NCBI RefSeq assembly: GCF_964355755.1
Contig: NC_092672.1
Location: forward strand, 13,206,001-13,270,000
Source of the DNA: Antedon mediterranea
Taxonomy: Eukaryota; Animalia; Echinodermata
Direction of reading: 5' to 3'
Length of the DNA stretch: 64,000 bases
The notes under the pieces were generated by a model. It saw only the letters and a list, made by a program, of their open reading frames with translations. It had not been told where the DNA came from and made no database searches. Of the stretch, positions 13,101 to 51,334 are shown piece after piece (the stretch's first letter is position 1; every line of letters begins with the position of its first letter). The translations under genes were made by a program, and so were the position numbers.

Positions 13101-16100
13101 TCGCTTCGCTCGCGTACCATCTAGGTCGTGCCCACAGATGGTTCTCGAATACACAGTAATTTCAGCGTAACAAAACTGGCGATTTCAAATGTACGTACCG
13201 TAGGACTATAATACATTGTCGTTTACAGAAACGAATAAATAGACAAGATGGAGAAACTTATCAAAATGAGTCCAAATTTTTGATTTGGACTCATTTAAAG
13301 AAACCCAATTTGTGTTTTGTATGTAACATTAGGATTGAGGGATGGGAAAACGGATAGGTACAAAGAGGAACACTTTTTAAATATATTCTTTATTCACTCA
13401 GTAACGAAATATTTTTTTCATGTTTTATAGGCCTATAAATAATATACCTCTAAATACAGTAAAACATTTGCGATTTAATACTTTGTTAAAACTGTCACTG
13501 TCATAATCGATTGAAATATTAAAGTACATGTCACGATACACCACTACGACGTTTATATTTTTGGTAATTATTAATTAATACAAACGTTGAGAAGGAACTG
13601 TCAGTATAAAGTTTATTTGTATATAATAATGTGTTTATATATCTAACAGTAGAGCCTATCCACAATCTCAGTAATAAAGTATATTTGTATATATTTTTAT
13701 GTTACATCTAACAGTACGAACATTCACAGTAAGAAATGTTCGATTCAAATGAGGACCAAAAATAGTTAATAGGTATTTACAGTATTTTCAAAGTATTGCA
13801 AATTTATTCTCAAAGGGCCCATAAATTTACATACCGTATATGTTAAACCAAGGGCTCATAAATTTACCTACTTGTGTTAAACCAAACTCTGGCAGACTGA
13901 GAGATTGGGATGTTCCATTCATCGCAAATCAATACATTTGTATAATCGTATATTAAATCTATCAAAATAGTATTTTTTTAAAGAAAATCGGCCTGTCTTC
14001 AACATTATGATGGTGTACTCTAGCTGTTCAACTGGTTTTCAGCTATTAAAAACAATTATCGTAGGAGGAGATAGGAAAATGCGAAGCCTCCTCGCATTTT
14101 TGTGGCGGGTATTTTTCAAGATGGACATCCATTAGACAGTGTATACCACGATTGGAAAACACCCCTATTTGGAGCAAATCGTTGAACCTAAATTCGTTTT
14201 ATCTAACTTAATTTAATTAGTAAACAGGGTTACATCAGGTGGTTAAAATCAGTACCGAAAGTACGAACCAACTCTATATACCATCGAGTACAAATTCTAA
14301 AAGTAAGGCGCGATTTACCGAATTTTGCCCTTACGTAAATTTATATATAGATTATTATAGGGTAGTAGGACTAGCTTATATTTAGGAAATGGTAACCTGT
14401 CTTATTTTTCATTACTCTTTATTCGCAATATAGCATGTGGTTCACAATTATTTGGAAGGAATTGTGATATATATTGTTCAAAACATAGGGTTAACTCGTG
14501 TATGGGCAACATGATGTGTCCACCATCACCACAGGGATGTTCTTGCACTGATGGATATACTGGTCCGGACTGTATTCAAGGTATGATACGTCAAGAAGAT
14601 ATCTAACCATTTAAAATATCATTATGAAACTGCCTTATTTCTCAACATAATATTATATAGCGAAAATAAAATGACAGTTTAATTATGTTAAAGAAAATTC
14701 AATGTTAATGCTGTGTTATACATTAGTACACTTTTAATAAGTAGGCCTACATTTATAATGCTATACATTTAATTTTAATATGATTGATTTACATGTACTT
14801 TAAGGAAGTTATTTTGATGAGTATTTATCAGTTGTCTTTTTAAGGAAGGTGATTATCGATGTCATGTTATTTTGTAGTTTTAATAAAGTTGAAAAAAAAA
14901 ACAAAAAAAAAAACAAGATTTCACTTATAAAATAACCTAATAATTTGTTAAATTTAATTAGAAGTTCATTGGCTGACAGCTAATTTCAACATTAAAAAAA
15001 AAAATTTACAGTTTTTTCAGGTAAATAAATTTTGTTTCCTTCCAATTTTTTTATCAAAGTTGATAACTTCTATGTGGCATTAAAATTGCATATTCAACAA
15101 CAACAATATGTAATTTTTTTTTCAGGGAGACAATACATCTTTAATGTATTGCAATTAATCTATCTCTTATTTATACTTATAGATCCAACATTACCGATTA
15201 TGTAATAGATTGTACTGTTTTCATATAGCTTTTATTTGGTTATGTTAAATTATTCTGTTCTTTAAATTATTGTTATCTTGTTTATGTAAGTATTTTGAAA
15301 TGGAATAAATAAAAAGTAAATTATTAGTTATATATAAATGCAATTTACAGAATGTTCTCCTGGGATGTATGGGTCTGATTGTCAGCAGAGGTGCCAGTGT
15401 GACGTCAGTCATTGTGATCGAAAGTCAGGTTGTAATGGAACATGTTACGAAGGATATGCTGGACCTCAATGCCAAGGTAATAAACTTATCGAAGAAGGGA
15501 ACATTCCATAATTATCTGTCGAGTACGATCCTATTTTCTGGATAATCTTTATTTATCAAAATATATGATTCAAGTTGTTTAGTTGGTTTAGACTAGAACA
15601 AATGTCTCTATTTTAAAAGCGATTTTAGTGGACGTTCTGCGTATACCAATTGCCCTTCTTTCCAAGACATAGTTTTTTAAATTTCATACGCATCCAACAG
15701 CGATCGGTGACTCGCCAATTACAGGATGGATAAACTATTTAATACTTGATTGTGCTAATAAACTAAGTTTTATTTGAGGCTTAGGGAGAGTGAAGTTGAA
15801 AGAGTCGTCAGTTACATCCTTGGAACTAGGTCAGCATTGAACTCCGGACCTTGACATTGGAAGGCAAACACGTTAACCACCAAGCCAGAGCTCCACTACA
15901 AATAAAAATTTACCACAATTAAACATTCTACCATTTAAAATGTAAATTTGACATTTTTTTTTCAGTATTAGTGCATGATCGTACTTGTTCCAATGGTCAC
16001 TTTGGTGCCTTATGTAACTATCCTTGTCACTGCCAAGACTCATCAAATTGTCATCGTAATGGAAGCTGTGATAATGGATGTGCTGCCGAATGGACAGGGG

Positions 16101-19100
16101 CCGACTGCAGTATCGGTATGTTTTTGTTTTAAAATTAATTTTAGGCAGAAGAATAATGTGCCATCGAGACAAATAAACAATATTAAGGTTAGGTTTGCGA
16201 TATATCATGTCCTAAAGAAAATAATGTATTGAGAATGCCTACTTTACCATTTTAAATAGTATATTTGTAGTATTTAATGCAGTAATACCTGAATTGGTTG
16301 AAGATGTAATTACCAATTTTACTTAATCATAATACAACTTTTAAGTCATCAGATAGAGACAGATGAACAGAGTAGGTTTACCTACTGCTATACGATGTTA
16401 ATAAATTACTTTTCCGTAAAGGGAATAGTCTTATACATATTAAAATAATCAAGTACATTAATTGTGTGTACATTAATATAGCTCTGCCGTATATGAGGAA
16501 ATTAAACGTGACAAATATACAAGCAACCAGTATAGATGTGTCTCATTTATGGGTATTTGGCGAAGACTTTGGAACTGGACCCGCTACTGCTTATACATTA
16601 TGTTACCGCAGCACCAACGATTGGCTTTGTCAGAAAACAATACAAAGTCTGTCAACAATCAATGGCTTAATACCAAACACAACACTTGAAATAAAGGTTC
16701 AAGTTTTCAAAAAGATTGGTTATGATGACATTGGAGGTCCTATGAAAACAGTTACAAGAATCAGAACTATTTGTCTCGGTAAGTTCTAAACTTGATCAAT
16801 TAGTTTAATTTGTCTATTTTTACTCTATAGTTCACTATGTCGGTCGGTCTGTCGGTCGGTCTGTCTGTCGGTCTGTCGGTCTGTCTGTCTGTCTGTCGGT
16901 CCGGTATCACTATGCGTTTTATCGCTTTCTGACCTTATCTTGATATCAGTTTAATCTAGCTAAGTCAATTTTTCACAGTATATTCCTTATGACCAGGAAT
17001 CGTTGTGGTTATGTTTTCACGGTGCCCAATAAAAAATTACGCGGTCTACGCACGATCTAACGAAATCACGTTTGTAATCATATCTTCACAACCATGAATC
17101 ACAATTAAATAAAATTTGGTACTCATAAATTTCAGGGCATAAATCATCATATGGCAATACAATTACGTGCGTAGCGCATGTAACGCATGCGTACGCGCGC
17201 TTAAAATTTTCAAAATTTATTTTCGATGAAATAAGAGTACGTTTCAGGCAAATTTAAGCGTTTACAAAATTGCCATGAGTGCGCAGATTTTTGTGCGCAC
17301 TGCGCGTTAAATGTTATTGCGCACTCTTTTTGCCCGATTTCTGTTTTCTTGACTTACTTTTCAACTCGAAATTACGTTATACGAGCACGTCAAAAGTGAC
17401 AGGCTACGCACGTGTAAATTTAAAAAATATAAATGTTTTTAAACATTTCAACATTTTTAAACAGGTTCAGTAATTTCGGTCAGTTGGTAGGTTGGTCGGT
17501 CGGTCTGTCTGTCGGTCTGTCTGTCGGTCTGTCGGTCGGTCTGTCGGTCCGGTATCACTATGCATTGTAGCACGCGACTTAATGGCTGTTGGCCTTGTTT
17601 ATTATAGTTTAAAAATAAAAATAAACTCTATCCAACTCTAATCTAAGCAATATAATCTCATTTCCTTTATAAATATCTTTTTACAAAATCAGTTCTGACC
17701 CTTTTGGTGACGACAATATTGTCATTGAAACTGAATGTGGTAGAATAATAATTGAAAATTTTATATACAATACTGATTTATTCATAATTTTATCTTTTTT
17801 TATTCATTTTGATTTTTCATTTTCATTGTAAAAACCTGTACAACCAATAGTGGAATTAGAATTACATGTACAATATATAATATATATATTATATTGGTTG
17901 AACAAAACATTTACGCAAAATATGACAGGGAGTATATCATAACTGTAATTTTAGTACAATTTAATACAAAATGAAAATATAGAATATAATAGAGCACTGG
18001 AAGGTAAGATTTACTAAGATGAATTATCAATTACAGAACCTCTTGATTCGCCAAAGGTAGAAACATTGTCAACCAACAAGGACACTATTGTAGTAAAATG
18101 GAAGGTGGGCATTTTCAATGTATTTTTTAATTACCTTATTGTTGTTGTACCTTAATAAAACATCCATTTTTTGAGCTAATGTATTGTTTTATCTGTCTTA
18201 AAATTTGCCAGTCACAAGTATATAGACAGTATCGAATTTTGATCGATAAACTTTTATGTGTTAATAATAATGTAAACGACATTTTACTGTAGTTATGTTT
18301 ACTTTTCTCCAAGGCTGTAGATTTCAATCCTACGCGGTTGCAGTGTGACAGTTTATTACATTACGACGTTGGTTACCAAACTGGGATTAAAGACGCTTGG
18401 GAAACATTTCAAGTTAATTATGATCAGACCGAAGCAACTATTAACTTTTTAGATTATGACATGGTATATCAAGTTAGAGTTAGGGCAGTGAATACAGCAG
18501 GAATTACAGGACCATGGAGTGAAATATGGACAATTAAAATTCCAGAAAATAAAACAGGTCAGGTTTCGTTCTTTGTAATTGACAATTACCCAGACTCTAT
18601 AGACTCAGCATCAGTGCGCTTAGCAGTAAAAAATAAATAAATAAATAAATAAAAATAAAATACCAGGAAATTTCAAACAATAGTAAACAAAATTATAAAA
18701 TAGCTGTGTTTGTTACTCTTGTCTTTTTTCGATACTTTTTTCCATCTACTAACACTCATCTACTAGGCCTAAGTAAACTAATTGTTTATACATTTACTCT
18801 CATCTACTAGGGTAAACTATTTATTTATATATTTACTTTCATCTATTAAATACACGATTTGTTTATACATTATTTTACTCTCATCTACTAAATAAACTAA
18901 TTGTTTATACATATTCTCTCATCTACTTAATACAGTATAAGAATACATTGACTTTCATCTATTAAATAATCGAATTGTTAATAAATTTTCTTATTTAGGA
19001 TCAAAGATAGCTATATATGTGCTCTCATCAGTGGTCGCATTGTTAGTTATTTCTACCGTTGTGGTTCTTGACAAATTGAGGTATGTGTCGAATGACCCTG

Positions 19101-19600
19101 GTTAGACCTATATTGCAATTAAGTGTATTCATTTGAATAATCAACTGAAACTTACAACATTTCATCTCTCATCAGTGACGCCATAACAGTATTTAAACCT
19201 TTATCATTGAGTAATAACTATGCTTACTAATTCCTATTTCAGACGAATTAAACGCCAGGTTAACGGATATAAAAAGGATTCTGGAAACTTTCAGATTAAC
19301 ACAATATCAAAGCCGTCACAAAATTACCAAGACGACAGTTACACTTCACTGCAAAAAGAAGCGTGTTGTTTGGTAGAATCTCCGAACAATACCTACGAAC
19401 AAGAAACCCCAAAAGACGAGATATTTTATTTGAACGTTACCAATTTATCCCAAAATAAACAAACAGAAGACGCCATAGCCGATACTGATACAACGTATGA
19501 TGAAATCTTTGTTGGCGGTTTAGAGAAGGAAAGAGGAACTGATGCACGAAAAAAACCTCCGGTGCCTAAGAAACCAACACTAACGAATGACAAAGAATAA
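1183..19600 (+). CDS. Receptor A: multi-exon kinase-less Tie-like type I membrane protein, [Ig-like, Ig, EGFx4, FN3]-[Ig-like, Ig, EGFx4, FN3, FN3]-TM-Tyr/Pro-rich tail; 5' end probably outside the window
   Basis: AG/GT-bounded in-frame exons: 1183-1551, 2065-2319 (Ig, DAGVYEC), 3148-3279 (CYNGGICDHITGLCIC), 3753-3887, 9142-9273, 9379-9543, 9785-10105 (FN3), 10712-11110, 11513-11758 (Ig, DAGIYEC), 11848-11982, 14434-14580, 15351-15476, 15966-16115, 16482-16778 (FN3), 18037-18104, 18314-18557 (FN3, YQVRVRAVN), 18999-19080 (TM IAIYVLSSVVALLVISTVVVL), 19243-19600 (tail, TAA). The EGF pattern KWG..C..C..CYNGG.C and CPP.P..CSC matches the Tie family. Confidence 0.85.
2526..2805 (+). mobile_element. 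tRNA-derived SINE with CORE/Meta-like central domain and L2-like tail
   Basis: A-box TGGCGCAGTG, B-box GGTTCGAATCC, central GGCAAGATACTT...TGCCTCTCTCCACCCAGGTGTA, 3' GCGCTATATAAAT followed by (TAT)n. Confidence 0.7.
4210..7257 (-). CDS. pol: LINE ORF2: apurinic-like endonuclease plus reverse transcriptase
   Basis: Uninterrupted 1015-codon ORF with GDFN, LDL, SDH (APE); YRPVSL, DFSKAFD, GVPQGSVLGP, FADD (RT); CR1-type C-terminus TRGH...SFS.R....WN. Confidence 0.93.
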   Translation of the reverse strand: MIVFEALVHHHKEFSNIESFCFEENYFNLERKVKQKFIRKKKCSEDKKKFKTFIEGLKQKKSRLRNDDIVDFHEKSLKFLYTNADALRNKMGELRDIINQRKPDVVAITEVNNKTCTDILEVELSIKGYTKFDSGRSGRGVVIFAKEELNASICNELLNLNFVEALWIKIEINKRQQLLCGCIYRSPNSIDENNQALLSAINKASELNGISDFIMLGDFNFPEIDWISWSTNKNETHKSNRFIECLRDNFLCQCIQQPTRFRDGQTPNILDLVITMDETKISEIEIGPPLGKSDHVTILFSYDCVTKIQEKMEYKLNFNKGDYIKMKELITEVDYQFENTNVEEACEALNKSIRNAVQICIPKSNIKKENKPIWMTGDVQRKIKMKHNAWKKFTRSRQQKDYDSYKKARNIVTGEKRAAKIALERKICNEVKTNPKSFWKYVREKTKTTQSIGLVKNGKGNMADDNQHKAEIFNAFFTSVFTNEDLESLPEVTPRVDVDDHLESIEVTKEEVLTCLQQMNSNKSAGPDDVHPRVLKELKEIVATPLTSIYNKSLSTGQLPECWKCANVVPIFKKGDKTEVGNYRPVSLTSVVCKLLESIVRDKIIQFLNDRNLIIKAQHGFRKGRSCVTQLLEVMEEWMKLLDAGENFDAVYLDFSKAFDSIPHQRLITKLEAYGIKGNLLRWIHQFLTGRRQRVRVAAAFSEWSTVKSGVPQGSVLGPLLFIIFINDLPDAVKSKVWMFADDTKMFNVVYENRNDTVQNDLKALSDWSKKWQLKFNINKCKVIHYGNSNPQMQFTMPTEEGDEDLPNANTEKDLGVTFDQSLKFSLHTNEAVNKANRLIGLVRRSFAYMDKDMFLPLYKSIIRPHLEYASCIWYPLLKGDLDKLERVQRRATKIVKKLRDKSYDQRLKELGLPTLNYRRRRADIIQVFKIIKGLDDIEAETFFDFREDSRTRGHQFKLRKPRARLKIRSHSFSCRIVNTWNNLYHTTVQAENINAFKDQLNKDRAMGDKFCYQF
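7223..8246 (-). CDS. LINE ORF1 (PHD finger, coiled coil, RRM-like), split by a +1 frameshift near 7715
   Basis: ORF 7698-8261 has CAIC..CDIC..C..C..W.CDTC (PHD). ORF 7223-7732 has R..RKLNIVIENLPE...IYINPDRS..ER, typical of CR1 ORF1. Confidence 0.85.
8564..9100 (+). mobile_element. Degenerate L2-clade LINE 3' fragment; its upstream part lies at ~4040-4113
   Basis: KNLGVMFDSSL (4081-4113) continues as KMSSKVNAL*KSLNNQLR, then LILSRLDYANSLL, LQRLQN, LHWL, GDGVFSV (L2 C-terminal motifs) with stops and frameshifts. Confidence 0.75.
10172..10673 (-). mobile_element. 5'-truncated LINE 3' fragment with (TTGAC)n tail
   Basis: Absent from the paralogous 99-bp intron at 25820-25918. Flanked by a TATTA duplication; AGTCAAGTCAAGTCAAGT tail. 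Confidence 0.6.
12020..12950 (+). mobile_element. Diverged non-autonomous Helitron
   Basis: 5' TCTA...TTTACGTAAGGGCAAAATT and 3' GAGAACCATCTGTGAACACGACCTAGACGGTACGCG match the ends of the 13088-14351 element. Confidence 0.6.
13088..14351 (-). mobile_element. Complete non-autonomous Helitron (~1.26 kb)
   Basis: Minus strand reads A|TCTATATATAAATTTACG ... CTAGATGGTACGCGAGCGAAGCGAGCGTACCATCTAG|T: 5' TC, 3' GC-rich hairpin ending CTAG, A/T insertion site, no target duplication. Confidence 0.85.
15760..15893 (-). mobile_element. tRNA-derived SINE head
   Basis: Reverse strand GGAGCTCTGGCTTGGTGGTTAACG...GGTCCGGAGTTCAATGC contains A- and B-box-like motifs. Confidence 0.5.
16819..17600 (+). mobile_element. 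DINE-1/HINE-like (Helentron-associated) non-autonomous element
   Basis: Two (GTCY)n microsatellite blocks, subterminal CACGCGACT, 3' GGCTGTTGGCC stem and a T-rich site. A near-identical inverted copy lies at 48414-49256. Confidence 0.7.
18735..18990. repeat. ~40-45 bp degenerate minisatellite upstream of the TM exon
   Basis: Repeated CTCTCATCTACTA...AATTGTTTATACATTT units. Confidence 0.65.
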
Positions 19601-21379
19601 CACGATTTGTAGGCCTATAACACATGAAAAAACGTTATGCATTCTGCTTTATGCAGTAAATATGTCATAAATATGGCGACATAGTTGTTTTTTAAATATA
19701 ATTACTTGTGTACAAGTATTTAGTAAATTGATTGATTGAGTGTGTTTTAGTTTAATAATAATAGGTAAAATAAAATATATGCTAATTCTGAAATACTATA
19801 TTATAAATGATTTGTTTTCTCTTTTGTTGCAATCACAACAAACATCATGAAAATAATGCACATTCAAATTTAAATGGATGAGCTAATTATGTAATATTGT
19901 ATTACTTGTTATAAGTGTTTGTGAATACAGTTATATAAACCATTATTTTAGATGCATATCAAACTACAGTATTAGGTTTCTATCTCAACTTTTCTACATA
20001 TCATATTAATGTAAGTATAAGTATTAGTAAGGTATTATATCATTTTTTCTTTTACACATTATATTAATGTCTCTTCATAGCTTTTTAAATAAATATGTTA
20101 AATAAGTGGTTACTCTTCGTTAGGTTGTCATTAATTTATGTAATAATGTAATGCATTACAGTATAAGTACGTAAGAATTGTGTGTGTACCAAACTATAAC
20201 TCCTTAACATTATCTGCAGTCACGCTAATTTTGATTTTGAATTAATTTCGTATAATGTGTTACATGCATGCATACAATATACAGTAGGCAACACGGCAGA
20301 TTTATGTGAACTGATACTGTATGAATGAGGAAAAGAATCATTTTACTCTTGCCTGCTTTAACTAAGCATATTTTTTAATTCTTAAAATGTTCTTTTTTTA
20401 TGAATTAAAGATAACAAAATCTTCCTCTCATATCTGTTAATATAATTCAAAAAACTGTATAAAAATAATTTGTTGTACAACTGATCGAAATACATATACA
20501 CATATTTAAATTTAAGGTTGCTAAACTCTCGAGCTTTGACCTTGTTGGTTATCATTAAAATGTGTACGTTTGATATGTTTTGTTCTTTTAATTGTTTATC
20601 ATAATATGGAAAATAAAACTGAAACTGACATTTTTAGCAGATGTCTGCTGTGATTGTATGTTTCTGTTGTCTGGATACTTCCTGGTATCAATCAATCAAT
20701 CAATCGTTCGATTTATATAGCGCCATTCCAACATTCATTGCTCATGGCGCTGTAGAAAAAATCAGTATGGTATGGTGCAGGGGCGGTAAAGAATTTACAA
20801 AGTTACAAAGCCACACGGAAATGCAAGTTAATAATGAATTTCATATAAAAGATAAACCAGTAAACTTAGTGAATCGTCAAGAGCTTACTGTTTACTACCA
20901 TGTTAAACGCTATTGAGTATCTGAGTCTGATTTTTCTGTTATGTTTCTGTGCGTCGATGACGTCTGCAGGTTAGTAACCATCTTTTTGTATGTAATTTCT
21001 TATATCTTGAATTCTATTTTTAAAATATTCCACAAGCATGCATACATTTGTTTAAAGAAGTAAATTATATACAGTATACACCTTTGTACACTACTTGTAG
21101 CAAATGTTATCTCCTTTGAATTTTAACACGACTATGGGCACTGCGATACCTTAACATATGATCTAATCTTAATTCATGACGTATCGGACCATTTTCCAAA
21201 TAATAGATATAAACAATAATTTTCACACCACTGATGACATTAAGTAGTATATTAAAGATATTCTGCATTAAACTGTGATATAGTGGAGGAGGATTGGTCA
21301 ACCATATATCAGTGCAATCATTCATCTACTTTTGATACTTTCCTTACTAAATGTTACAATATCATAACAAAGATAAACA

Positions 21380-21911
21380 TACTCGGATATATAACTTAAC
21401 TAAACATAACATTTTTAGACATTTGAAAAAAAAAATCATTTCTTTCTAAGGCGTTTGACGGTCTAGACCACGAAATACTACTTTTTAGTTATGTTTTCAG
21501 GAGAATTACTCTAAATTCGTTCAAAAGTTATTTGCAAAATAGTACACAAGTTGCACTAGGATCATATAAATCTGAAATGAGTGATATTACTTGGTTCAAG
21601 TTTCTGTATTAAGACCTCAATTTATAATTATCTTTAAACGACCTCTACAGAGCTTCACATAATTTCTTTTGCCGATGACATTACTCCATACAAAAATAAT
21701 TCTATACTATAAAAAATCATTCCTTAAACCATTTTTCTCCATGCTTAAACTTACATATTGAAATTAATGGTAAAGAAATCGAAGGTAAAACTGAAACTCT
21801 ATTTCTTGGAGTCTACGAATTGGACATTCCACCAACAATATATAGCTAAAATGATATTTAAAGTTATTGGATTTACTAACAAACATTTTATCCAACCAAC
21901 AATCTTCTTTC
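21380..21911 (+). mobile_element. Highly degenerate LINE RT remnant
   Basis: TCTAAGGCGTTTGAC...CACGAAATA (SKAFD..DHEI) and TTTGCCGATGAC (FADD) are still recognisable. Confidence 0.5.
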
Positions 21912-21913
21912 TA

Positions 21914-24293
21914 CGGTGGCTGATTTCCGCCAAAGAAAACAATTATTTTATAAAAATACGGCATTATAACGTCGTATTAGGACGTTATAACGCCATAATA
22001 CGGCGTTATAACGCCCTAATACGGCGTTATAACGCCTTAATTATACAATCCGTTTACACGTACATGCGCATGCGTAGTACATCAACAAACCCAGATCCAT
22101 AAAGAGTTGCGACTTTGAATGGATTTAATTAAAGCCATTTTTGTGTAAAACTATTCCTATGTAAAGTATGGAGTTGAGTCCTTTGTTTTAAAAATGTATA
22201 ACATTCAAAAGGCTTTAACTCGAATTTAATATCAAAACAATCAATTTGTTAAAATTTTTTTTTTAAATAATATGAACATTATTTTGATGATTTTAAACAA
22301 CAGAAATAGCTTTAATCCATTTAATTTAACGGCTCTGGCTGTGCGCTCCATGCACGCTCTACGCGTGCGCGTTTATTTTGTACAGCGATTCTCTATAGAT
22401 GCATTGTTTTTACATTTTGTTGTTTAAAGGCCAGTGGCCGTATTCACCAATCACACTTAAGTGAGATATTTCCATTAAATCCTAAGGATTTCCCTTAAAT
22501 CAAGAAAATATTAAGGGTTTCACTTAAGTGGTATTCACAAAGGGGTTAAGGTTAAGGGAAACCCTTAACTTGGTCTATTTTCCCCTTAACTTTTAAGGGA
22601 CCTCAGAGGTCCCTTAAAAGTTCCCTTAACTATTCAGTACCTTGGTTGTGCTGACGATTCTGTATGTGCGAGTACTATGCCTACTTATGGATGGCCCCAG
22701 TCTAGGCTAGGTAGAGATGCTAGGCCCCTGTTGGTCTGCCCACTAACCAGCCTAGGATTCATGTTTGGTTTGAGTAGCATCTAGACATTTTTTTGCTGAT
22801 CCCCACCCATACAAATTAGTCTATGCCTATATATTGATTTATTTGTTTTGTTTTGACTGCCATTATTTTTGTGGAAGTTTCCCATTTCGTTGTAATAGAA
22901 ATTAGCCCCATTCTAGTAGGCTAGGTAGAGATGATAGGCCCCCTGTTGGTCTGCCCAGTAACCAGCCTAGGATGCATATGCCTCAATACAGACAGGTTTA
23001 GGCCTACACAGAATGTAGGTTTGTTAGTAGCATCTAGGCTAGACCTATTTTTCTTGATCCTCATACAAATTAGTCTAGGTTTAATATTCATTTACTTGTT
23101 TTTGTTTTGATTGCCATCGTCTATACATTTTTCTCTTCATCCTCCCCGTCCCCCCAACCCCTTACTCTTTTTAAAAATATGCAAATTAGTTTTAGAGAAG
23201 AAAGTGATTGGACCATAGGGGAATTAAATCCTCTGTGATTGGACAACGGGACAACTCATGAATATTTATGATTAATTTTACCCTTAAGTCTTACCCTTAA
23301 ATTAAGTGTTTTCCTTAGGTAAGTGAATACCTTAACTCATTTGTGAATACCCCTTAAGTGTTTCCCTTTGTTAAGGGAATTCTTAAATTTTAAGGGTAAG
23401 TATTTCCCTTAGCCTAAGTGAGATTGGTGAATACGGCCACAGGTGCGGGAAAAAAATTCTATTGATCATACATTCCAATAATTATCGATCTATAGTTTCC
23501 CCTATGTTTCATAATTTTTGGGATTTTATTTGTGTTACTTGAGCTTGTTAAAAATAAGCACTTTCTTATCAGTGGGGGGATAGTTCAAATTACACAGTAA
23601 AATCTCTATTCTTTTGTACACACATTTTGTAAAAAAAGAGGCATTTTAAAAAGCTATGAAAAATTAACGGTGTGGTAAAAAATGTTATCAGATGACTACA
23701 TATAGGTAGTATAACTTAAATTTTACATTTCTGGTATTTTTATTCAACTTCAGATTTTTATTTTCATGCTATAGCAGAAATTATCCACCGTCATCTTTTT
23801 TCACCTTCTAGAGAGTCACTAGACATGTTATTACATTAGGTTAAACTACCTAACTACTGAAAAAAAGTCTTCCTGGTTTTTATAGCAGAATTTTGCCAAA
23901 TTTTGTATTTGACCATATTAAGGAAAATTCCTGTTTTTTCGTTTTGATTTCTGTTACAAATATTTGATTTATGTACAATTAACCAGATATTATATTCAAA
24001 ATTCATTCCTGTATCTGAGCTTTAAAATCATCTTCGCAGTAACTTTATGATTTCGTTATTATCTTAACAAAAACCTTTAAACAAATTGATTGTTTTGATA
24101 TTTTAATTAGATATTTAAAACCTTGTGACTTAAGCAAATGACTCGACTCCATACTCTACATGGGCATAGTTGGCCCTAATTTAGGGCGTTATAACGCCGT
24201 ATTAGGGCGCTATAACGCCATAATTACGGCGTTATAACACCGTATTATTTATATTATTAAATAATTGTTTTCTTTGGCGGAAATCAGCCACCG
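21914..24293. mobile_element. Non-autonomous TA-targeting TIR transposon (Tc1/mariner-like)
   Basis: TA|CGGTGGCTGATTTCCGCCAAAGAAAACAATTATTT ... AAATAATTGTTTTCTTTGGCGGAAATCAGCCACCG|TA, with subterminal GGCGTTATAACGCC repeats at both ends. Confidence 0.8.
22435..23439. mobile_element. PIF/Harbinger-type MITE nested in the TA element
   Basis: CAG|TGGCCGTATTCACCAATC ... GATTGGTGAATACGGCCA|CAG (3-bp CWG duplication) with many subterminal TTAAG repeats. Confidence 0.8.
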
Positions 24294-24750
24294 TATAAAG
24301 AAGACTTTCTTTAAATAAATATAAATGTCACATTGAATATAATTAATTTAATACCTGTATATAGTTTGCAATTATATAATACCGCATGGAAAACATTACT
24401 GTTGCAGTGAAACCCGCGGATTGCTTATCTTTTGACATTTTCTTCTTCTTCTACGTTGAATTTTTCAAAAATAGTTTTGAAAATAAGTTGGAAACATCAT
24501 CAACGATATCTTAAAGAGAAATATTCATGTTTTTCTTATTTTTTATTATTTTTATTATTCTTAAGTTATTTGCTGTATTTTTTTTTTTTTTTTTTTGTTA
24601 TTAGTGAAGCTATTTTTTCTACATCTGTGTGTGGGTTTCTCGCAAGGTTTGTTTTTTGTTTGTTTTTGTTTTTAAGCCGTACATTATTTGAGGCGCTTTA
24701 CTTATTTAGTAGGCATACAACTGAAACAGCCGTTATACTTTTTTAAACAG

Positions 24751-27700
24751 ACATAATAGCAGGATGTGACAAACATACTGGAGAATGTTTAAATGTCGCT
24801 AGTTGTGCTAGTGGATGGGGTGGGTCTGATTGTCAAATAGGTAAGTTAATTTTATAATCAAGAAATTGTATTGGCTGTAATTTGATTTTATTTATTTTTT
24901 ATTTTTTATCATCAATTAAATATACTTATAGGCTAATGAATGTTTATGTTATTTATTTATGTTTATGTTTAAGATTGACTGCTATATTTAGCGAGGTGAG
25001 ACGGCAGCCGTGTTTAAGATAGCAGTATATCTTTTAACAACACCATCTAACGAATACAAGCTTTCATTATTTTTTTTGGTCTTCCTTTCATTATTTGTTA
25101 TAAATTACGCCTACTGTCAAATAATGTGAACAAACGAAACAATTATTCATAGGTGTAGTGTAGAAAGCCAACTGAAACTGATCTAGGCTAATAGTCTGGT
25201 TTTATTTCAACGCTTCCATGTCTTTTATAATTGTTCCCATTAATTAATCAAATGAAGCTCTTAATTAATTAATCTCTCTTCAAAAATTCCGATCAAGTGC
25301 CGTTTGAATTTTTGCTGCCAAAGTTTAAAACAACAGGTGGCGCTATTGCTTTTCACGAGGGATGTTTACAGTTTCACCTTAAGATATTTTTTGTACGCGA
25401 AAACATTTTGTTTTCGTACTAACAAGCTGAAAATAGTATCACACAATCGTTTAATAATCATCGTTAATACAAAACATTCAGACTTTTATCATTATCAGCT
25501 TTGCCAATTCTCAAACGTAACCCAACTACAAGTGTTACAGAAAACAGTATAACTATAAGCTGGGAACCATGGACGAGTAGTATTGACTACGGAACAGGAC
25601 CCGTCACAAAATACCAAGTAATCTATAGGACACCACCGAACTCTGGATTTCCTTTTATATTATTGCGGAAAGTAAATGTGGACGATTTAATGCGAGTGGA
25701 CATTGATGATTTAGAACCAAGGACTAACTATGAAATAAGAATTATTTTACATAGGCAGATTGATGGAGAGAATTATACATCAATTGGTTCAAGTAAAATA
25801 GTTGTTACCTCAGGAGAAGGTAAGAAAGATATTCTAACTCATTTGCAAGATATATTTTATTACCGTTTTTATACAAGTGATATTACTACGGAGAGTAACA
25901 TATATTGGTTATTTTCAGACAAAATCATGGATTTTACATTTTATTGTGCCACACCACGAGTTGACGTTGATGATAATACGATGTCTACGTTCATTGGCGG
26001 ATATAGTGGCAGTTATCATCAAACAAGTGATATACAAATCGGAAAAATTGTTACTGAAAATGAAGATTTTCTCGGTCGTGCAATAACATGGAATTATGGA
26101 TCCAAAGCAGGAACTATTTTAGGCAATGAAACAACGTTTCCAGCTGGAACTTGTGTCGAAGTCTCAACTAATAGAAAATTTAATGCCTTACGTGTGTTTA
26201 TTGACTCTGCCAGTGGCGTTAATAAACTGGGAGTATTTTACGCAAAAGCTAATAAATATTTAGGCATGTATAGGCATATATCTAGCGAAATTGTATCAAT
26301 CGTCTTAAGTAAACATGGTAAGTTTACAAAAAACAATTCTTTGATCAGAATAAGTCTGATTGTGATGTAATGCGTATAATATACACATTATTATTTAACC
26401 TTGAATACGATTTTTGTGTTTCTTGCTATTGTGGAAAAATAATATTCGGTATTTATTACAATACCATTATTTTATTGTATAATTATGTAAGTACATGCAC
26501 CATAGTGGATTATACTGGAAGAATAAACTGAAATACTCCACAATCAAATACAATCAATAATTATTTCACCAAGAAAAAAATGATTTTGTTTTTTTATAGA
26601 AAGAAGGAACACTATCTTAAGATGTTAATTTAAACCGATCCACTTATTGTATATCTTAATAACCAATCGTTGCATTGTCCAACTTTTAAGTAGTTGGTAG
26701 CACTGTTAACAAGGCACATAACATCAGTGACTATATATGTATTTTGCTGGAGTATAATATCCTGGCTTAGATACCAGAGTCTGTTGTATATAGACTGATA
26801 TAGCTTTCTTAAAGATGTATTGTCCCCCAAAAAATGAAAAATAAAGATGAAAAAAATCAAATTTTGAATAGACCGTTTTGTAGTTAACATAAAGTTATTC
26901 ACTTCCACCGAAAAAAAATCCGAAAAAAATATTGATTTCGCTTATAAAAAAATCAAAATAAGTTTACCATTTTTTCGAACTCATCGGCTCAGAAATTAGG
27001 CCGGGAGAGCTAACTCATACATATGCATGATATGTTAATGAGCATCCACACAGCAGAGATCTGATCTAACAATGGACGATGCACGTTGTATGTACAACAA
27101 CACCACCAGAGATCGACGCGATTCGACTGTGGGTTTCCCTGGCCTGATCGTATAAATATGTAAAGCTGAGCTGTTAATTTGTCGGTAAGTAGGCCTAGAC
27201 GGTTATTTTAAATACAATAATATATATAACGCAATAATAACAGGAAGGTAAATTAATTAACTTAACCTGGGATTTTTTCAGTTCAGGGCTAGGCCTAGAA
27301 TAATTAATAGTAATACATGCTGCTGCATATTACTAGGCTAGTAGCAAGCAGACTGTGACAATCGGGTCCCTGCAGAAGATGCCCAGCTAGGCCCTATCTA
27401 TACATTGTACTCTTCATAGACTGGCCTAGGCTATATGCCATCACTCTTAGCTACATTCCGAAAATACAGCCAGCTTGCTGTACCATATATATTTACAGTT
27501 GAAGGTTGTTTAACTAATTTTTATGATAAAAATAAAACAAACATTTTTCAGGGAAAATGGTTGCAATACAAGCCTGAAATTGAGAACCTTCCAGCAGCAC
27601 TGTACAAGTAGACAGAGGGGAAAAGCCAGCTTAGCCATTTTACAACACAAACAAATGTTCTCTGTACTGTAGTAAGTCAAATATTTATTTTCTCTTTTTA

Positions 27701-30700
27701 TAAGTTATAACATTATAAGTAATGTGTTTTAATTACCATAGAAAGGTAGTATACTTATTTGACTATGTCAAAGTAAGCAATTTCACTAGCCCAATTTTGC
27801 ACTAAATATGCATGATCTATTTTTTCCAGATTTTCATACTTTGCTTTTACTTTTTTTAAAGACGTTGAGCTGATGAAGACTGGAACAGAGGTCACCCAAA
27901 GACAACAATGATAGACTCGGTATTGGAATATGATTGGATGTTGCAGGAAAAATATTTCTGACTCTCCTGCTGCATTTGGCCAATATGTTCTTGTCCAGCT
28001 TGTAAAATATTGTATAATTTTTTTTGTATTATATGTACAGTATATTATTTTGTAAACATAACATTCAATAAATAAAAAAAAACTACTACAACAGTACACA
28101 GGATAAATTCTTCAAATTTACTTACACTTCATAATTTTACTGTAAATATTACAGTGCAAAAGGAGTTAATAAAATATATATATACAGTATATCTGATTGA
28201 ATTCCTGTATTGTTTTTTGTGTCAATTTGTCTACTAATTATCAATGTGTTGATTGTGGCAGTAATTACGACAGCTATAGTCTTCTAAGATCGCTCACATC
28301 CATTACAAAGTGTTATTTTAATAGTAAGAAACGTTTCAATAAATTGTGAATGTTGCCACTGTACGATACATTTTATGTTTCTCACTACTTGCTCTTATTG
28401 TTCAATCAATCAACCTAAAAAAAAAAAGAAATTTGTGTCAAAATATCTGCATAAAATGTTTATTTGCGGAATGTTAATTTGAACCTATTGCATTTGATAC
28501 AGAAAATATTAAAAAAATATTGCATCAGTAAAACATCCAAAACAATATTTAGATCATTTTTTTTTTTTTAATTTTCACTGCCGCATAGATAGTTGAAATC
28601 TTTAAAAATTAAACCAATTCATCATGATTAAAACAAAAATACATCCCTTCTGGTGGTGTTCTACTGTAGCCCTAGCTAGCAGTGTACTGCCTAGGCCTAC
28701 TACACTCTACTTCTAGAGACAGAAGTAGGCAGCAGTTAGGCTACTCGAGACTGTCAGTGCTAGTAGTAGTAGTACTAGTAGTAGTACAGTAGCAGCAAAT
28801 TCGGGCCTAGGCCTAGCTAGGCCTCTCCTGTTAGCGAAACAAAAACTCACCTAAATGAATAAGATTCAACATCAAAGTTGCCAACTGTAATTCTAACTTA
28901 GCATTCTGCTAGCTATAGTTTTCGTGTTTTCTTCAAGATTCGTCTCGCATCACTCCTCGACTCTCTCGCACGCATGCATCGCGCATTGCTATAGTTGTTG
29001 GCTGTTGATTTGGAAAGCATCATCATCCACACGATGTATCCATACAATATGAATATTTATGAGCTAACTCAGGTCAAGGGTTAAATTAAACCGGAACACA
29101 TTTGTCTTCCAGACAAATAGCTTCCGGTTGGTTAATTTTTGCATTAAATTGCGATTTTCCCGTGTAAAAAATTATTTTTTTCAATCCAAATTGAGGTCAA
29201 AGTGAATAACTTTTATGTGTAATTAAAATGGCCTATTCAACAAAAATATTGAAAAAAAAAATTCTTTCAGGGGGACAATACATCTTTAAATTACAAATTC
29301 GTATTACGTGATTCAATATAATAGGTTTTCTGCAAACGTTGGTGTTCCTTGCAATACGGTACTACGGTAGATACTTATGCAATATTGTTTTTAATTATTT
29401 AGATGTAGGCCTAGGATGTAGTGTTCAGAGTACACTACATAAAATAGATTAATTATAACAATTATATACTGTTAATTTTAGCATCAATAACGTCTATTAG
29501 AAGAACTTGGACAACCGGTATAGGAGAACGTGTAATGATGAACATGGTTGGTGACAACTCGACAGATAAATGGTGGCGCCACAATGGCATTACTCTTAAC
29601 GAATGGAACAGTCTTTTCATCCGAATAGATGTGGTAAGAAAACAAGATGCTGGAATATACGAATGCTTACCTAGCGAAAATTGGGAGAATGGGAATAAAG
29701 GAATTACAAACTTAATTGTCAGAGGTAAACAAATGATTTACTTTAAACGATCTAATGCTAACAAATGTGTAATAGTCAAATGATTATTAGGCCTATTTCA
29801 GTCGTGGTACTTACATTTTCAGAGTGTCCACTTCGTAAATGGGGACCACCTGATTGTTTACGCAACTGTCCAACTTGCTACAATGGTGGAGTTTGTGATG
29901 ACGTAACAGGATCATGTGTCTGTACAGTCGGCTTTCGTGGTATCAACTGTGAAATAGGTCCGAAAGTATAATTATTATCTGTATCCATTATTAGTAATTA
30001 TCTGTATAACTTTATAAGTTTATGTACAGTATGTACAGCTACTAGTCCCTATATAGATTTAATTTTAAAGGTTTGTGTAAAGGTGTCGTATCTTCAGATG
30101 TAACCCTCTTCATATCTAAACAACAATATCAAAAATACACATCGTACAAACATTTAACTCGTATGCATTATTTCACAGCGCTAACATGCACAATATTTTT
30201 AATGAAAAAAACTAACATATCAAAGGCATTTTAAATTTAAATAAAACAATATTCACGCATGACTTCAGCCTATAATTATAGTTTTTATATTGTTACGCGC
30301 GTCAATATTACTCGTAGTATAGAACCTAGACTATACTAAACAGTAACAATAAGCACATTTAAGCACTTATGACATTACAGAACTACTCAAAACCTGTACC
30401 AATTAGTATTATGGTAGTAAGGGTAGTTGATTTAGTATTTATTTTGCATTATTCTTTAATTTATTCGGAAAATAGCATGTGGTTCACAATTATTTGGAAG
30501 GAAATGTACTATATATTGTGCAAAATCTAATGAAGAATCTTGTATGGGGAAAATGATTTGTCCACCATCACCACAAGGATGTTCTTGCACTGATGGATAT
30601 ACTGGTCCGGACTGTATTCAAGGTATGATACCTTTACAGTAGAAAGTTGAATAAAGTATAAACCGCTTTAGTGAAGTCTTTATATATATTGTTATAAAGT

Positions 30701-33700
30701 CACAACATGCGCAATAGGGCTAGCTAATAAAAGTAAATGACTATATATCATAAATAAACTAATTTAGTTTAAAATTAGTAATCACTCGTATATCTGAAAA
30801 CATTATAACAATAATTTAATAAGCAGAACCAAAAATTATCCATATAAGCTATGCTTTTATATTTATTCTTTTATCTTAGAAATATTGTTATATTATCTTT
30901 ATGTAAACATTTTTAAGTTAAATATATTTTTTTTTTAATTATGTAGAATGTTCTCTTGGAATGTATGGCTCTGATTGTCAGCAGAAGTGCCAGTGTGACA
31001 TCAGTCATTGTGATCGAAAGGTTGGATGTAGTGGAACATGTTACGAAGGATATACTGGACCTCAATGCCAAGGTAACGAAAACGAAGTAATAATAATTAA
31101 TCGCCTATCTGGACGAGTACGATCCTATTATCTGAAGTGTTTGAAGAACAATAGGTAGATGCTTATTTATCAATATGTTTTCCCAATCTGTATGATAACC
31201 TATCTAAAAATCTGTCTTTATTAAAGGAAATAATCTTGGTATTGCTTTTTGCATTTCCTAGATGTAAATTTAAGTTTAATTTAGGCCTATATCAATTTCA
31301 GAATTGGTGCATGACCGTACTTGTTCCAATGGTCACTTTGGTGCACTATGTAACTATCCTTGTCATTGCCAACACTCATCTAATTGTCATCGTAATGGAA
31401 GCTGTGATAATGGATGTGCTGCCGAATGGACAGGGACCGACTGCAGTATTGGTATGTTTTACATAAGCAATAATTGTGTAAAGATTAGCATGGCGAATAA
31501 ACACTAGTCATTTTAGGTTTGTATTTCAAAACCGTCTTCTGGAGAATGCCAGGCAAGTAAAGATCAGTCGGATATTAAGTATTAAATACAGTAGTCTAAG
31601 GTGAGTTCATCACAAGATAATAGCAAACTAGGCTTATTATTTCACACTAGGACAAAGCATTGATGATATTGTTAATTTTAGTTTAAAATAATGTTAGATG
31701 AGTAATTTTATAGAGTATAGTTGTGATTATTTAATATAGTAGCAGCCATTTTCTATGATTCAGAAAAAAATGGAACTAGTTTTTAAACTCAGGAGACATA
31801 GCATTACGTATATTAGGTTCACTTACAAGTTACTTTTACCTTATCTATAAGTGACCTTTTAATCAATATTGTTTATAAATAATACAGCCCTGCCGTATAT
31901 ATGGAGAAGATTGAACGTGACAAATATACAAGCAACTAGTATAGATGTGTCTCATTTATGGGTATTTGGTAAAGACTTTGGAACTGGACCCGCTACTGCT
32001 TATATATTATGTTACCGCAGCACCACCGATTGGTTTTGTCAGAAAACATTGAACATATTTTCAACAATCGCTGGCCTAATACCAAATACAACAATTGAAG
32101 TAAAGGTTCAAGTTTTCAAAAAGATCGATAATGATCACATCGGAGGTCCTGTGAAAACAGTTACAACAATCAGAACTATTTGTCTTGGTAAATTCAAAAC
32201 TAATAATTTTTCATTATTGAATGTAGGCCTACTTAAATTTTGTTTTCACCGTTATCAAATAAATAAGTTTTTTAGCCATTATGTCTAATGTGTTTCGAAC
32301 CGTCGACACATTTTTTATTTGATTCCCTTTTCTAGACCATTAACCATTTACAAATCTCACACTTAATTAATCCCATCTGATTTTATCTGGTTTTTTTTTT
32401 CTTTTTCTTTTAATCTAAGTTTCTCCCAATTCCTCAGCCAAATACTTTTAGGCCACCACAGCAACAAGTATGCGTGTTAGTGACTTACCTTTAATTAACT
32501 ATTACTCATTTAAACATGGCAGCTTATTCAATGCAGATTGTTTGCGATGGAAAAAACATTTAACACAACTATACTTGAAGAAAAAATCTTTCTACAAAAT
32601 TCAGTTCTAACCATTAGAACTGAATCTGGTAGAATAATCACCAACATTTTGAGATAAATATATATATATATAGGTAACTTTATTCCAAAAAATGTAACAA
32701 AACCACGCACTGTGGATTTACAAAATCTGATACGTTCTTATATGCATGCATCCTACAACAACAAAAAATATAAAATAACGTAAAAATAAAGATTCAAAAT
32801 AACAAAAAGCCACTTATTTCTGTTGCTGACAATCTCACGCAAATTAATTAGGTTGTTTAAATTATTTATCTTAAAATTTCTGATAAATAAATCATTTCTA
32901 AGTGTACTTAACAGATTGGTTTGATGTTTTCCAATTCGCCCTTTTATTGGATTAGAGTGTACTATACCAAACACCAATGCTAAAAAAGCAGGAGTATCTT
33001 CACTCATTCTAAGTATATGGCCAAGCATAGACCACCTAAGTTTATTTACATTCTCAGATAAAGGTTTAGTATTTGTTACCAAATATAACTTATTATTGCT
33101 AATCTTTTTCGGATATTTCACATTAATAATAGTTCTTAAGTGGGACCTATGACAGGTATCAATTTTTGGGAGCAGACCAGCTATTGCAATTATACAATAA
33201 AATAGATACAACTAATACATTATATAACTTGAGTTTCAAATCAGTTGCAATATTTTTCTTAAGCCACACATTATTAAAGTTGTTAAATGCTACATTTGCT
33301 AATATAATTCTATGCTTAATATCCTTAGTAGTATCTAAAAATGAACCTAAGACCCTATGAGACCTCCATACTTCAGATTTTGGGTCCTTACTATCAATAA
33401 ACACATGGTTAAACTCAGTCTTGCTTTCATTAATAAATAAATTCCAATCTTTAAAAACTTTAACAGCAATTGGCAAGACATTATCAAGTTCGCTCTTGAG
33501 TTCAGAAAGAAAGTCAATATCGTCAGCATAGGAGAATTCAAGCGGGAAACATTTAATGTCAATTGGTGGATTAGGTCTGAAAGTAGTCATAGCTCTTAAC
33601 TGGTACAAAGCTCCAGCAAATGTGATAGTAAAAAAAAGTCCTGATAAACAATCGCCTTGAAACGAACCTAATACAGATTCAAACGAACTGGAAAGTTTAC

Positions 33701-35536
33701 CACCAACTTTTACTTGTAGTTTGGTATTTGACAACATAAACCTAACTAGGCGTATGTCATCGTCAGAACAACCAGCATCGCTTAGTAAACGTAACACAGT
33801 ATCACGTTTAATAGTATCAAACGCAGAAGACATGTCTAAACCCATTTTGTAGAATTCCCTTTTTTTTTTAGATAAATACTAATTTATTTATAATTTTATT
33901 TATTTGTTTATTAAAATCAATAAAGAAATTTGAAATTGTACGATATATAGTATTTATAATAATATATTATATTGTTTAAACGTAATTTATACGGTACGCA
34001 TATGACATTAATGTAGTTTATCGTATAATCTTAGTAAAATACAAAATAAAAAATGCAGATCGAGGTAGATTACTGTAATGTAATTTTTACTGACTAATTC
34101 ATTACAGAACCTCTTGATTCGCCAAAGATAGAAACATTGTCAACCATCAAGGACACTATTGTAGTAAAATGGAAGGTGGGAATAACAATGGTATTATCCA
34201 TTTTAGTCTATTTCAGTTTTGAAACTCAATCGAATTTTGATAATAGATCAACTTTTAACCCAATTTATTAAATTTGGATTGTTATATGTAAGTATGCCTA
34301 TTAATACAATGATATTATTCATATATCACATATTTTTCCTTTTATCACTATGCAAAATTTAAATGTTCTGTATTCACGACTGGGGTGCACAGAGGGGTGG
34401 ACACGTTAATATAGGGCCTAATGTATGTAGTAGGTTTTACTGATTTATCTTTTTCTCAAAGGCTGTAGATTTCAATCCTACACGGCTGCAGTGTGACAGT
34501 TTATTACATTATGCCGTTGGTTACCAGACTGAGGTTAACGACGCTTGGGAAACATTTCAAGTTCATTATGATCAGACCGAAGCAACTATTCGTAGTTTAG
34601 CTTATAATATGGTATATCAAGTTAGAGTTAGGGCAGTGAATACAGCAGGAATTACAGGACCATGGAGTGAAATGTGGAAAATTAAAATTCCAGAAAATAA
34701 AACTGGTAAGATTTCGTTCTTTGTAGGCCTAATGGACAATGAATACTAAAATCTTCAATGCGCTTTGCGGTAAAAAATATAATGCTAGAAAATTACGATT
34801 TCAAACCGTAGTAGAACGATATTTTAAAATAGCTTGTATTGTTTCAATATTTTTTTCCATTTTGCTAAATCTACTATGCCTAAATAAACTAATGTTTATA
34901 TATTTATTCTTAATTTGAAACGATAAAGATGAGGAAATCCGTGAGAATGAGAAAAAGTCACTCCAACCGAGACTCGATCTCGGACCGTCTGCTTGATATG
35001 CAGTTGTCCTAACCATTATATTTATTCTTATATACAAATATAAATAAACGAATTGTTTATACATTTTTTTCGACTAAATAAACTAATTGCTTGTACATTT
35101 TCTTATTAGGAGCAAAGATAGCTATATATATGCGCTCATTAGTTGTCGCATTGTTACTTACCGTTGTGGTTCTTGTAAAATTGAGGTATGTGTTAAGTGA
35201 CCCCAGTTTGTAATTGTAATTAATTGCATTCATTTGAATAATCAACAACTGAAATTTAAACAAAATCAGTGCATCTATTAGTTTTTCAAACATACAACAT
35301 TTTCATCTCAATTATCATCGCCAAGAAGAATATTTTACCATTTAATAAAAACTACGCTTACTAATTCCTATTTCAGACAAATGAAGCGCGAGATTAATGG
35401 ATTTAAAAAGGATTCTGAGAAATTTCAGATTAACACAATATCAAAGCCGTCACAAAATGACCAAGATGACAGTTACACTTCATTGCAAAAAGAAGAGCGT
35501 TGTTTGACAGAATCGCTGATACAACGTACTGTATAA
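24751..35536 (+). CDS. Receptor B: partial tandem paralog of receptor A (half EGF, FN3, Ig-like, Ig, EGFx4, FN3, FN3, Arg-containing TM, short tail)
   Basis: In-frame AG/GT exons: 24751-24840, 25499-25819, 25919-26317, 29482-29724, 29823-29957, 30476-30622, 30947-31072, 31302-31451, 31888-32187, 34108-34175, 34462-34705, 35110-35185 (TM IAIYMRSLVVALLLTVVVLV), 35377-35536 (tail ending ESLIQRTV*). Ectodomain and TM indels versus A are multiples of 3. No start or signal exon of its own was seen. Confidence 0.75.
26813..29285. mobile_element. Kolobok-like non-autonomous DNA transposon (2.5 kb) in a receptor B intron
   Basis: TTAA|AGATGTATTGTCCCCC ... GGGGGACAATACATCT|TTAA; no intact ORF inside. 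Confidence 0.75.
32753..33850 (-). mobile_element. 5'-truncated RTE-clade LINE fragment (reverse transcriptase), frameshifted
   Basis: ORF 33159-33845 has DMSSAFD, QGDCLS and YADD; ORF 32753-33211 has LRWSMLGHILRM, an RTE-type C-terminal motif. Confidence 0.8.
34958..35020 (-). mobile_element. tRNA-derived SINE remnant
   Basis: Reverse strand TAATGGTTAGGACAACTGCATATCAAGCAGACGGTCCGAGATCGAGTCTCGG shows cloverleaf-like D, anticodon and T arms. Confidence 0.45.
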
Positions 35537-44236: not shown

Positions 44237-44522
44237 ATGTTTCTTTTAGTCGACAATGCATCATATTATGATAAATCTGAATACGGAAATTCAACATCTA
44301 ACACGAGTCACTATGATGCCTTCAGAGACATATTCCTTCTTAGTGACTGGGAGAGGATTTTGCGTTACAAGATTATTCCAGTTGTTGTCACTTTAGGCAT
44401 TGTCGGAAACATAATTACCTTTTTTGTTATAGTGAGTAAATTACACACATCAATTTACGTGTATCTAGCCAATTTGGCAATAGCTGATACAATGTCTTTA
44501 ATTGTGGCACCCTTTTGGGACA
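44237..44522 (+). pseudogene. GPCR 2 N-terminus to TM2, truncated by a Helitron
   Basis: Paralog of GPCR 1 (SDWERILRY, GIVGN, NLAIAD). It breaks exactly at A|TCTATATATAAA. Confidence 0.8.
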
Positions 44523-49175: not shown

Positions 49176-49210
<35 letters not shown>

Positions 49211-51157: not shown

Positions 51158-51334
51158 ACAATTTACACAGTGCAACGCAACATCATTGATTTACATATAC
51201 ACAATATTATTTAAAAAACCGTTGCGAATTAAATTTGGAATTTATTCTGACTTGTTAAGCCTCCACTGATTGTGAGGGCGTTTGTTGTATGAGAAAATGT
51301 ATCTGGTGGGTGAAAATCTGTGATAATACCACAT

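Follow-up and report, generated by a model that had tools for sequence, protein, structure and literature searches.

A tandem cluster of kinase-less Tie-ectodomain receptors with one short-tailed copy in the crinoid Antedon mediterranea

Results

Two tandem receptor genes and their cluster

We analysed a 64,000-nt window of the genome of the crinoid Antedon mediterranea (RefSeq assembly GCF_964355755.1, contig NC_092672.1, positions 13,206,001 to 13,270,000), which carries two tandem genes, here termed A and B, coding for single-pass receptors with Tie-type ectodomains. Gene models for both were exon chains built from the window, with GT-AG ends throughout; coordinates are those of the window, and features lie on the + strand unless stated otherwise. 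Gene A comprises 18 exons (1183 to 19600), its signal exon falling outside the window, and gene B comprises 14 exons (20900 to 35536), the B model being matched exactly by XP_071944640.1 of the same species. The original prediction regarded A and B as a pair; the RefSeq predicted models, which are also the source of this accession, instead revealed a tandem cluster of about four A-type copies and one B. The further A-type models on the contig are XP_071944637.1 (1,276 aa), XP_071944639.1, which corresponds to the 3′ part of the window's A, XP_071945711.1 with XP_071945712.1, and the fragment XP_071944242.1, which stops at the transmembrane (TM) segment. A 1,955-nt contig in run X6, taken as RNA by guess, skipped both introns and carried an A-type TM segment with a long tail, indicating that an A-type copy is transcribed; none of the runs listed as matching is recorded as RNA, which has no bearing on expression. 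Among the matches listed, X6 gave no B-type spliced contig, only a 156-nt piece (35716-35872, depth 3.2), which does not amount to absence because contigs drop variants; none with a B-type TM or tail was among those listed for X5, a second species, and this was likewise not counted as absence.

The ectodomain of A contains two Ig-Ig-EGF modules with 37.5% mutual identity and four EGF exons apiece. Module 1 consists of a Tie-type Ig1 (1183-1551) and Ig2 (2065-2319), both missing from B, followed by EGF exons at 3148-3279, 3753-3887, 9142-9273 and 9379-9543. An FN3 exon (9785-10105) precedes module 2, which has Ig exons at 10712-11110 and 11513-11758 and EGF exons at 11848-11982, 14434-14580, 15351-15476 and 15966-16115; two membrane-proximal FN3 domains follow (16482-16778, and 18037-18104 plus 18314-18557). 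An intron of A harbours a near full-length long interspersed nuclear element (LINE) on the − strand (4210-8267), with pieces of a PHD-like first open reading frame (ORF1) and a 1,022-aa endonuclease/reverse-transcriptase ORF; a second such LINE lies at 57340-60492 (−), its ORF2 being 42% identical to that of the first. A repeat family of ~1.3 kb is present at 13109-14352 and 44522-51164 in many rearranged direct and inverted copies that are 80-99% identical.

Similarity between the two genes starts at B 24745 and A 9448, mid-way through the A EGF exon 9379-9543. B has its own signal-peptide exon (20900-20969), with homology to A-type signal peptides and spliced in the model to an AG inside an exon at 24751; the resulting half-EGF exon (24751-24840) thus uses an in-exon acceptor at the N-terminal deletion breakpoint. 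It is followed by an FN3 exon (25499-25819), Ig exons (25919-26317 and 29482-29724), EGF exons (29823-29957, 30476-30622, 30947-31072 and 31302-31451) and the later FN3 exons (31888-32187, and 34108-34175 plus 34462-34705). The 11 ectodomain exons beyond the half-EGF were all open, one FN3 domain being split across two of them, and the shared part of A and B showed 87% identity. Because its signal exon is homologous to that of full-length A-type copies, B is, as judged from exon content, a whole-gene duplicate that shed both N-terminal Ig exons along with three and a half EGF exons. The idea that B is a 5′-truncated copy without a signal peptide was rejected in view of the exon at 20900-20969. 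An AlphaFold model of B had a mean predicted local distance difference test score (pLDDT) of 80.6, falling below 50 in the half-EGF and at residues 766-782, and did not permit placement of the TM arginine described below. The FN3 exon of A is 98% identical to that of B, 3′ intron flank included, and this stretch is likely a recent gene-conversion tract.

The B start codon lies 1,300 nt past the A stop, so that the A 3′ untranslated region (UTR) and the B promoter are tightly packed. Near the N-terminal deletion breakpoint, the first intron of B contains nested inverted repeats (21903-22019/24181-24304 and 22431-22552/23329-23443) that are likely remnants of DNA transposons. Another B intron holds a reverse-transcriptase retroelement fragment (32753-33878, −) that the matching A intron does not have.

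A Tie-type ectodomain without a catalytic domain

That A and B are kinase-less receptors with a Tie ectodomain was supported. A 50-sequence family profile aligned to Tie2 over the segment running from Ig1 to the end of the EGFs (E 1e-107), Tie2 was the best match in a fold search, and no kinase or protein tyrosine phosphatase (PTP) exon was found within the window. Tie1 and Tie2, as well as the echinoderm SpTie1/2 and Tie-like genes, have the Ig-Ig-EGF module and membrane-adjacent FN3 domains in common with A and B. Tie receptor tyrosine kinases (RTKs) have the domain order Ig-Ig-EGF3-Ig-FN3x3. A and B differ from them in lacking both the third Ig domain after the EGFs and the kinase, their tails being 118 and ~55 aa long and the spliced A-type contig carrying the long tail; A differs further in doubling the module, with four EGF exons in each, and in ending in a short tyrosine-motif scaffold.

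For the family at large, 186 proteins were fetched, 7 unrelated or tiny ones were dropped, and the remaining 179 were classed by motif and hydrophobicity; the set includes some MEGF-like EGF-repeat proteins that are not genuine relatives by the Tie module. The module occurs on 8 proteins with an RTK motif and 23 with a PTP motif, these catalytic forms from ambulacrarians and amphioxus including examples from Holothuria, Apostichopus, Branchiostoma and Patiria. A and B, in contrast, belong to the 64 single-pass forms with neither motif; 2 proteins were multi-pass and 82 had no TM segment. Removal of 7 isoforms or near-copies from the 64 left 57 catalytic-less relatives, most of them standing for a 50%-identity cluster. 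In Holothuria, the catalytic-less receptor P0046 and the receptor PTP P0049 have very similar TM and juxtamembrane segments, a likeness which suggests that catalytic-less Tie-ectodomain receptors may arise by loss of the phosphatase domain.

Transmembrane segments and cytoplasmic tails

The TM exon of A (18999-19080) encodes a 21-residue core, uncharged as predicted, and its tail exon (19243-19600) encodes 118 aa with no kinase. The predicted tail motifs are in place: an ITIM (immunoreceptor tyrosine-based inhibitory motif) that is also a YxN motif (IFYLNV, 19421-19438), an immunoreceptor tyrosine-based switch motif (ITSM; TTYDEI, 19490-19507) and a PxxPxK motif (KPPVPKKP, 19553-19576), besides a YxxL (19331-19351) resembling a hemITAM, the single-tyrosine form of the immunoreceptor tyrosine-based activation motif (ITAM). 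The four A-type copies with a TM segment are all uncharged there, and the three full A-type tails have consensus matches to the ITIM, ITSM and proline motif in common. The ITIM arose in 16.6% of 20,000 shuffles of the A tail, the ITSM in 5.0% and both together in 0.64%, and this joint improbability makes an inhibitory role for A plausible, if unproven. The word inhibitory is nonetheless uncertain for A because the same tail also holds the YxN, YDEI, hemITAM-like and PxxPxK motifs. Our reading of ITIM, ITSM, YxN, hemITAM and PxxPxK motifs follows their general binding preferences.

The B TM exon (35110-35185) differs by a Leu-to-Arg change (35133-35135), a 6-nt deletion, and Ser-to-Leu and Asp-to-Val changes. 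Within a hydrophobic stretch of 20 residues the arginine occupies position 6, leaving an uncharged run of 14 residues. The B tail (35377-35536; ~55 aa from the first cytoplasmic charge) terminates at a stop codon at 35534-35536, as predicted, and the deletion in it proved to be exactly 103 nt, corresponding to A 19381-19483. The original prediction overlooked two features: a 5-nt insertion near 35526-35530 that accompanies the deletion (net −98), and one retained tyrosine motif, DDSYTSL (35465-35485), which holds the only tyrosine of the tail. The old tail end persists out of frame in the B 3′ UTR (35532-35633). One proposed Y-to-D change in B is doubtful, as the long-tailed gene of the second species has B's letter at 35459; Asp is thus probably ancestral, and a D-to-Y gain in the A-type copies is the likelier event. 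B is 87-88% similar to the A-types in the ectodomain versus 75-76% in the TM segment and tail.

A DNA contig from run X2 was identical to B over 34989-35293 (0 differences), indicating that neither the Arg codon nor the 6-nt deletion in the TM segment is an assembly error; X2 may be the source sample, so it is not independent evidence of fixation. No contig among the matches listed in four runs spans the tail deletion junction, which argues neither way.

With the A tail exon as query, no homolog was found at 64-207 aa, and tail matches were confined to its own cluster. Across the family, motif content was compared with 500 shuffles for the 43 relatives' tails of 25-300 aa. YxxI/L/V (51 versus 28.6 expected) and YxN (32 versus 15.2) both exceeded all shuffles, whereas ITIM (11 versus 6.9, P = 0.084) and ITSM (2 versus 1.3) were not significantly enriched, which points to a family of general SH2-docking scaffolds. 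ITAM-like pairs, with a spacer of 6-12 allowed, occurred in 5 of the 43 tails against 0.5 expected, two of the five being close paralogs. Four catalytic-less relatives (P0010, P0011, P0018 and P0094, hemichordate and sea cucumber proteins among them) carry an ITAM-like double YxxL/I in their own tails.

The transmembrane arginine

A rough insertion score placed the Arg at TM position 3-5, near the outer interface. Receptors coupled to FcR-gamma are marked by a conserved NxxR, and the LILRA-type Arg also lies in the outer part of the TM segment (PMC2413239). The corresponding B residues are IYMR, in which the Arg is present and the Asn absent. The other B TM changes preserve or increase hydrophobicity. 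Random non-synonymous changes in the A TM segment introduced Lys or Arg with P 0.14-0.21 over 4-6 changes, and selection has removed basic TM charges in the other 56 relatives.

The expected association of TM charge with tail loss was seen in B and did not extend to the other relatives, only 1 of the 57, B itself, having a basic residue that breaks the TM segment (with representatives at 50% identity, partners may be hidden). A short tail need not come with TM charge: of 19 short-tailed relatives, 17 are uncharged in the TM segment, and none besides B has a basic residue there. In one further protein, P0063, a C-terminal TM segment of doubtful status contains an acidic residue.

Two hypervariable ectodomain patches

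Of 605 ectodomain columns compared among the paralogs, 117 are variable, with the variation concentrated in two patches of 12 residues: the first falls in the Tie-Ig1-like domain, the second where the second EGF begins (module 2 of A, 10939-10974 and 14460-14495; B, 26143-26178 and 30502-30537). None of 2,000 shuffles reached the top window, and the clustering held for the A-types alone. In each patch, picked post hoc, all 7 codon changes between A and B are non-synonymous, with 0 synonymous. This pattern suggests ligand-driven diversification, as in recognition-type receptors. Paired vertebrate receptors, by comparison, homogenise their ligand-binding domains (PMC3210942). Since the candidate binding patches of A and B diverge, different ligands fit better than a shared one.

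The proposed immune-type recognition is consistent with these patches, which are typical of recognition receptors; a role in immune cells may be inferred from relatives only. In sea urchin, coelomocytes and the axial organ show elevated levels of Tie and Tie-like transcripts (PMC6494969), and a Tie-2-like protein is a candidate coelomocyte marker in starfish (PMC13409769). These proteins are relatives of A and B, with no orthology implied.

Selection on gene B

The ratio of non-synonymous to synonymous substitution (dN/dS) between A and B was 0.47 (bootstrap 0.35-0.63; dS 0.15) over the 799 shared codons, and 135 of 1,121 aligned sites in the non-coding flanks differed. Up to the TM segment B has zero stops, frameshifts or lost splice sites across 2,369 nt and keeps 42 of 43 shared cysteines. 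Neutral simulations of B (0.03-0.075 substitutions per site, 2,000 runs) predicted 3.2-7.7 stops, with P ≤ 0.011 for an intact frame. Neutral evolution of B, named in the original prediction as a possible refutation, is therefore improbable, and the B frame looks to have been kept open by selection, with which recent silencing would be compatible.

Between A and the abandoned tail end of B, 6 codons differ; read in the old frame, every one of these differences is non-synonymous, and 4 are B-specific. At the nucleotide level the tail end has 5 B-specific substitutions and a 3-nt deletion. With four amino-acid changes specific to B against no synonymous change, the truncation is unlikely to be new and the short-tailed form appears to have persisted, small as these numbers are. 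A very recent frameshift in B was also considered and is weakened by the decay of this remnant.

Discussion

We give an about even chance to the interpretation that the locus encodes a cluster of fast-evolving kinase-less Tie-ectodomain receptors acting as phosphotyrosine scaffolds, together with one tail-less copy, B, retained by selection as a modulator or decoy. In such a system the hypervariable Ig and EGF patches would bind ligand, Src-family kinases would phosphorylate the YxxI/L/V and YxN motifs of the A-type receptors, and SH2 proteins of the SHP2, Grb2 or Syk type could then dock on the phosphorylated A tail and SH3 proteins at PxxPxK. B would bind a related ligand without supplying the distal docking sites. 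Its single YxxL may serve endocytosis or weak signalling, and its Arg would sit at the outer bilayer edge, with the side chain among the head groups and no adaptor pairing.

Several points weigh against this interpretation. DDSYTSL, kept in the B tail, looks like a hemITAM, and as such would cast B as a signalling receptor in place of a decoy. The 25 residues of the B TM segment include 6 private changes, an unusual number that may reflect selection, and B stands out from all the other catalytic-less relatives in its TM-breaking basic residue; the position of the Arg alone does not exclude an adaptor, because LILRA-type receptors have theirs in the outer TM as well. Finally, the pairwise dN/dS does not resolve the two branches from each other, and its value is also the one expected if A were conserved and B neutral.

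Under a broader idea, crinoids would have independently built a paired immune-receptor system on a Tie ectodomain, in which several ITIM/ITSM receptors with hypervariable patches are set against one activating copy; we consider it doubtful in either of its forms, Arg with adaptor or hemITAM-like motif. In the former, put forward in the original prediction, B would be the activating partner of inhibitory A-types through its Arg and an ITAM adaptor with an acidic TM segment, in convergence with LILRA and PIR-A. Arg and tail loss do occur together in the single B copy beside four uncharged A-type TM segments, the Arg occupies the outer third of the TM segment, where receptors coupled to FcR-gamma also have theirs (PMC2413239), B is under selection with its TM hydrophobicity otherwise maintained, and the A tail combines ITIM and ITSM beyond what shuffling readily yields. 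However, NxxR is lacking, the coupling of charge and tail loss is confined to B, half of the B ectodomain is gone, and the patches diverge where paired receptors would homogenise them (PMC3210942). The known ITAM adaptors are described as a jawed-vertebrate design of unknown ancestry (PMC4536121), and none turned up here, the species proteome not having been searched. The LILRA/PIR-A mechanism is in our view improbable for B. Activation without an adaptor is also rather unlikely: loss of the ITIM, ITSM and proline motif would free DDSYTSL to recruit Syk or Shark in the manner of hemITAM receptors, giving a pair like the Botryllus FcoRs. The motif is intact in B as its sole tyrosine, ITAM-like pairs exceed expectation in the family tails, and ITIM/hemITAM switching in Botryllus FcoRs (PMC12065747) and ITAM/ITIM tails in Hydractinia Alr (10.1101/2022.03.04.482883) provide invertebrate parallels. 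Yet the motif is unchanged from A and could also be a plain endocytic YxxL, the pattern, met in 0.34% of shuffles, was picked after seeing the sequence, and its two family matches are A and B themselves.

It is also unlikely that B is a decaying duplicate, once functional and now silent or nearly neutral after two large deletions and a tolerated TM mutation. Both deletions look destructive, the dangling half-EGF is poorly modelled, the TM segment is charged, and the pairwise dN/dS is compatible with a neutral B branch. Duplicate decay is common here, given that a neighbouring rhodopsin-family G-protein-coupled receptor has three broken copies in the window (40841-41902 with an in-frame stop at 41141-41143, 44252-44524 and 63106-63674; one repeat-cut, one frameshifted). 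What stands against decay is the long intact frame of B with its conserved cysteines, improbable under neutrality, and the fact that the old tail end gathered changes while the ectodomain stayed open. The selected modulator or decoy remains our preferred reading of B.

Like LILRA/LILRB, PIR-A/PIR-B and Xenopus XFL, the crinoid genes are clustered tandem paralogs with related ectodomains, although B is without the first module, and a long ITIM/ITSM tail with a neutral TM segment stands beside a short tail with an outer-TM Arg. The vertebrate ectodomains, unlike the Tie-type ones of A and B, consist of Ig domains only; A and B further have no NxxR and no known adaptor, B has lost half of its ectodomain, the putative binding patches diverge, and there is a single B-type copy. 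Botryllus FcoR and Hydractinia Alr resemble A and B as invertebrate single-pass clusters with ITIM, hemITAM or core YxxI/L/V motifs in the receptor tails themselves, ITAMs or ITIMs in the case of Alr (10.1101/2022.03.04.482883); their ectodomains are unrelated. In Botryllus a DAP12-like adaptor was hypothesised, but what emerged as the partner was a family of receptors that have ITIM/hemITAM tails of their own (PMC12065747). In these two papers, the word "charged" leads to no passage on TM charge coupling. Searches of open-licence literature, subscription journals aside, turned up no paper on this crinoid receptor family. Taken together, the cluster works like the birth-and-death clusters of immune receptors; it resembles paired receptors in layout, and it is not a Tie kinase system.

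Tyrosine-motif immune receptors of echinoderms are poorly charted. If B is activating, above all through an adaptor, a signalling design regarded as typical of jawed vertebrates would move to a different branch of the deuterostomes, making it possible to test how ITAM adaptors originated; were the adaptor mechanism true, charge-based coupling of receptor and adaptor would extend beyond jawed vertebrates. Should B be a decoy or a decaying copy, the contrast between A and B would reflect ordinary birth-and-death evolution. The cluster points to a widespread catalytic-less Tie-ectodomain class, more than a third of the relatives classed here, with tails rich in SH2-docking motifs, and the hypervariable crinoid copies are concrete candidate recognition receptors of coelomocytes.

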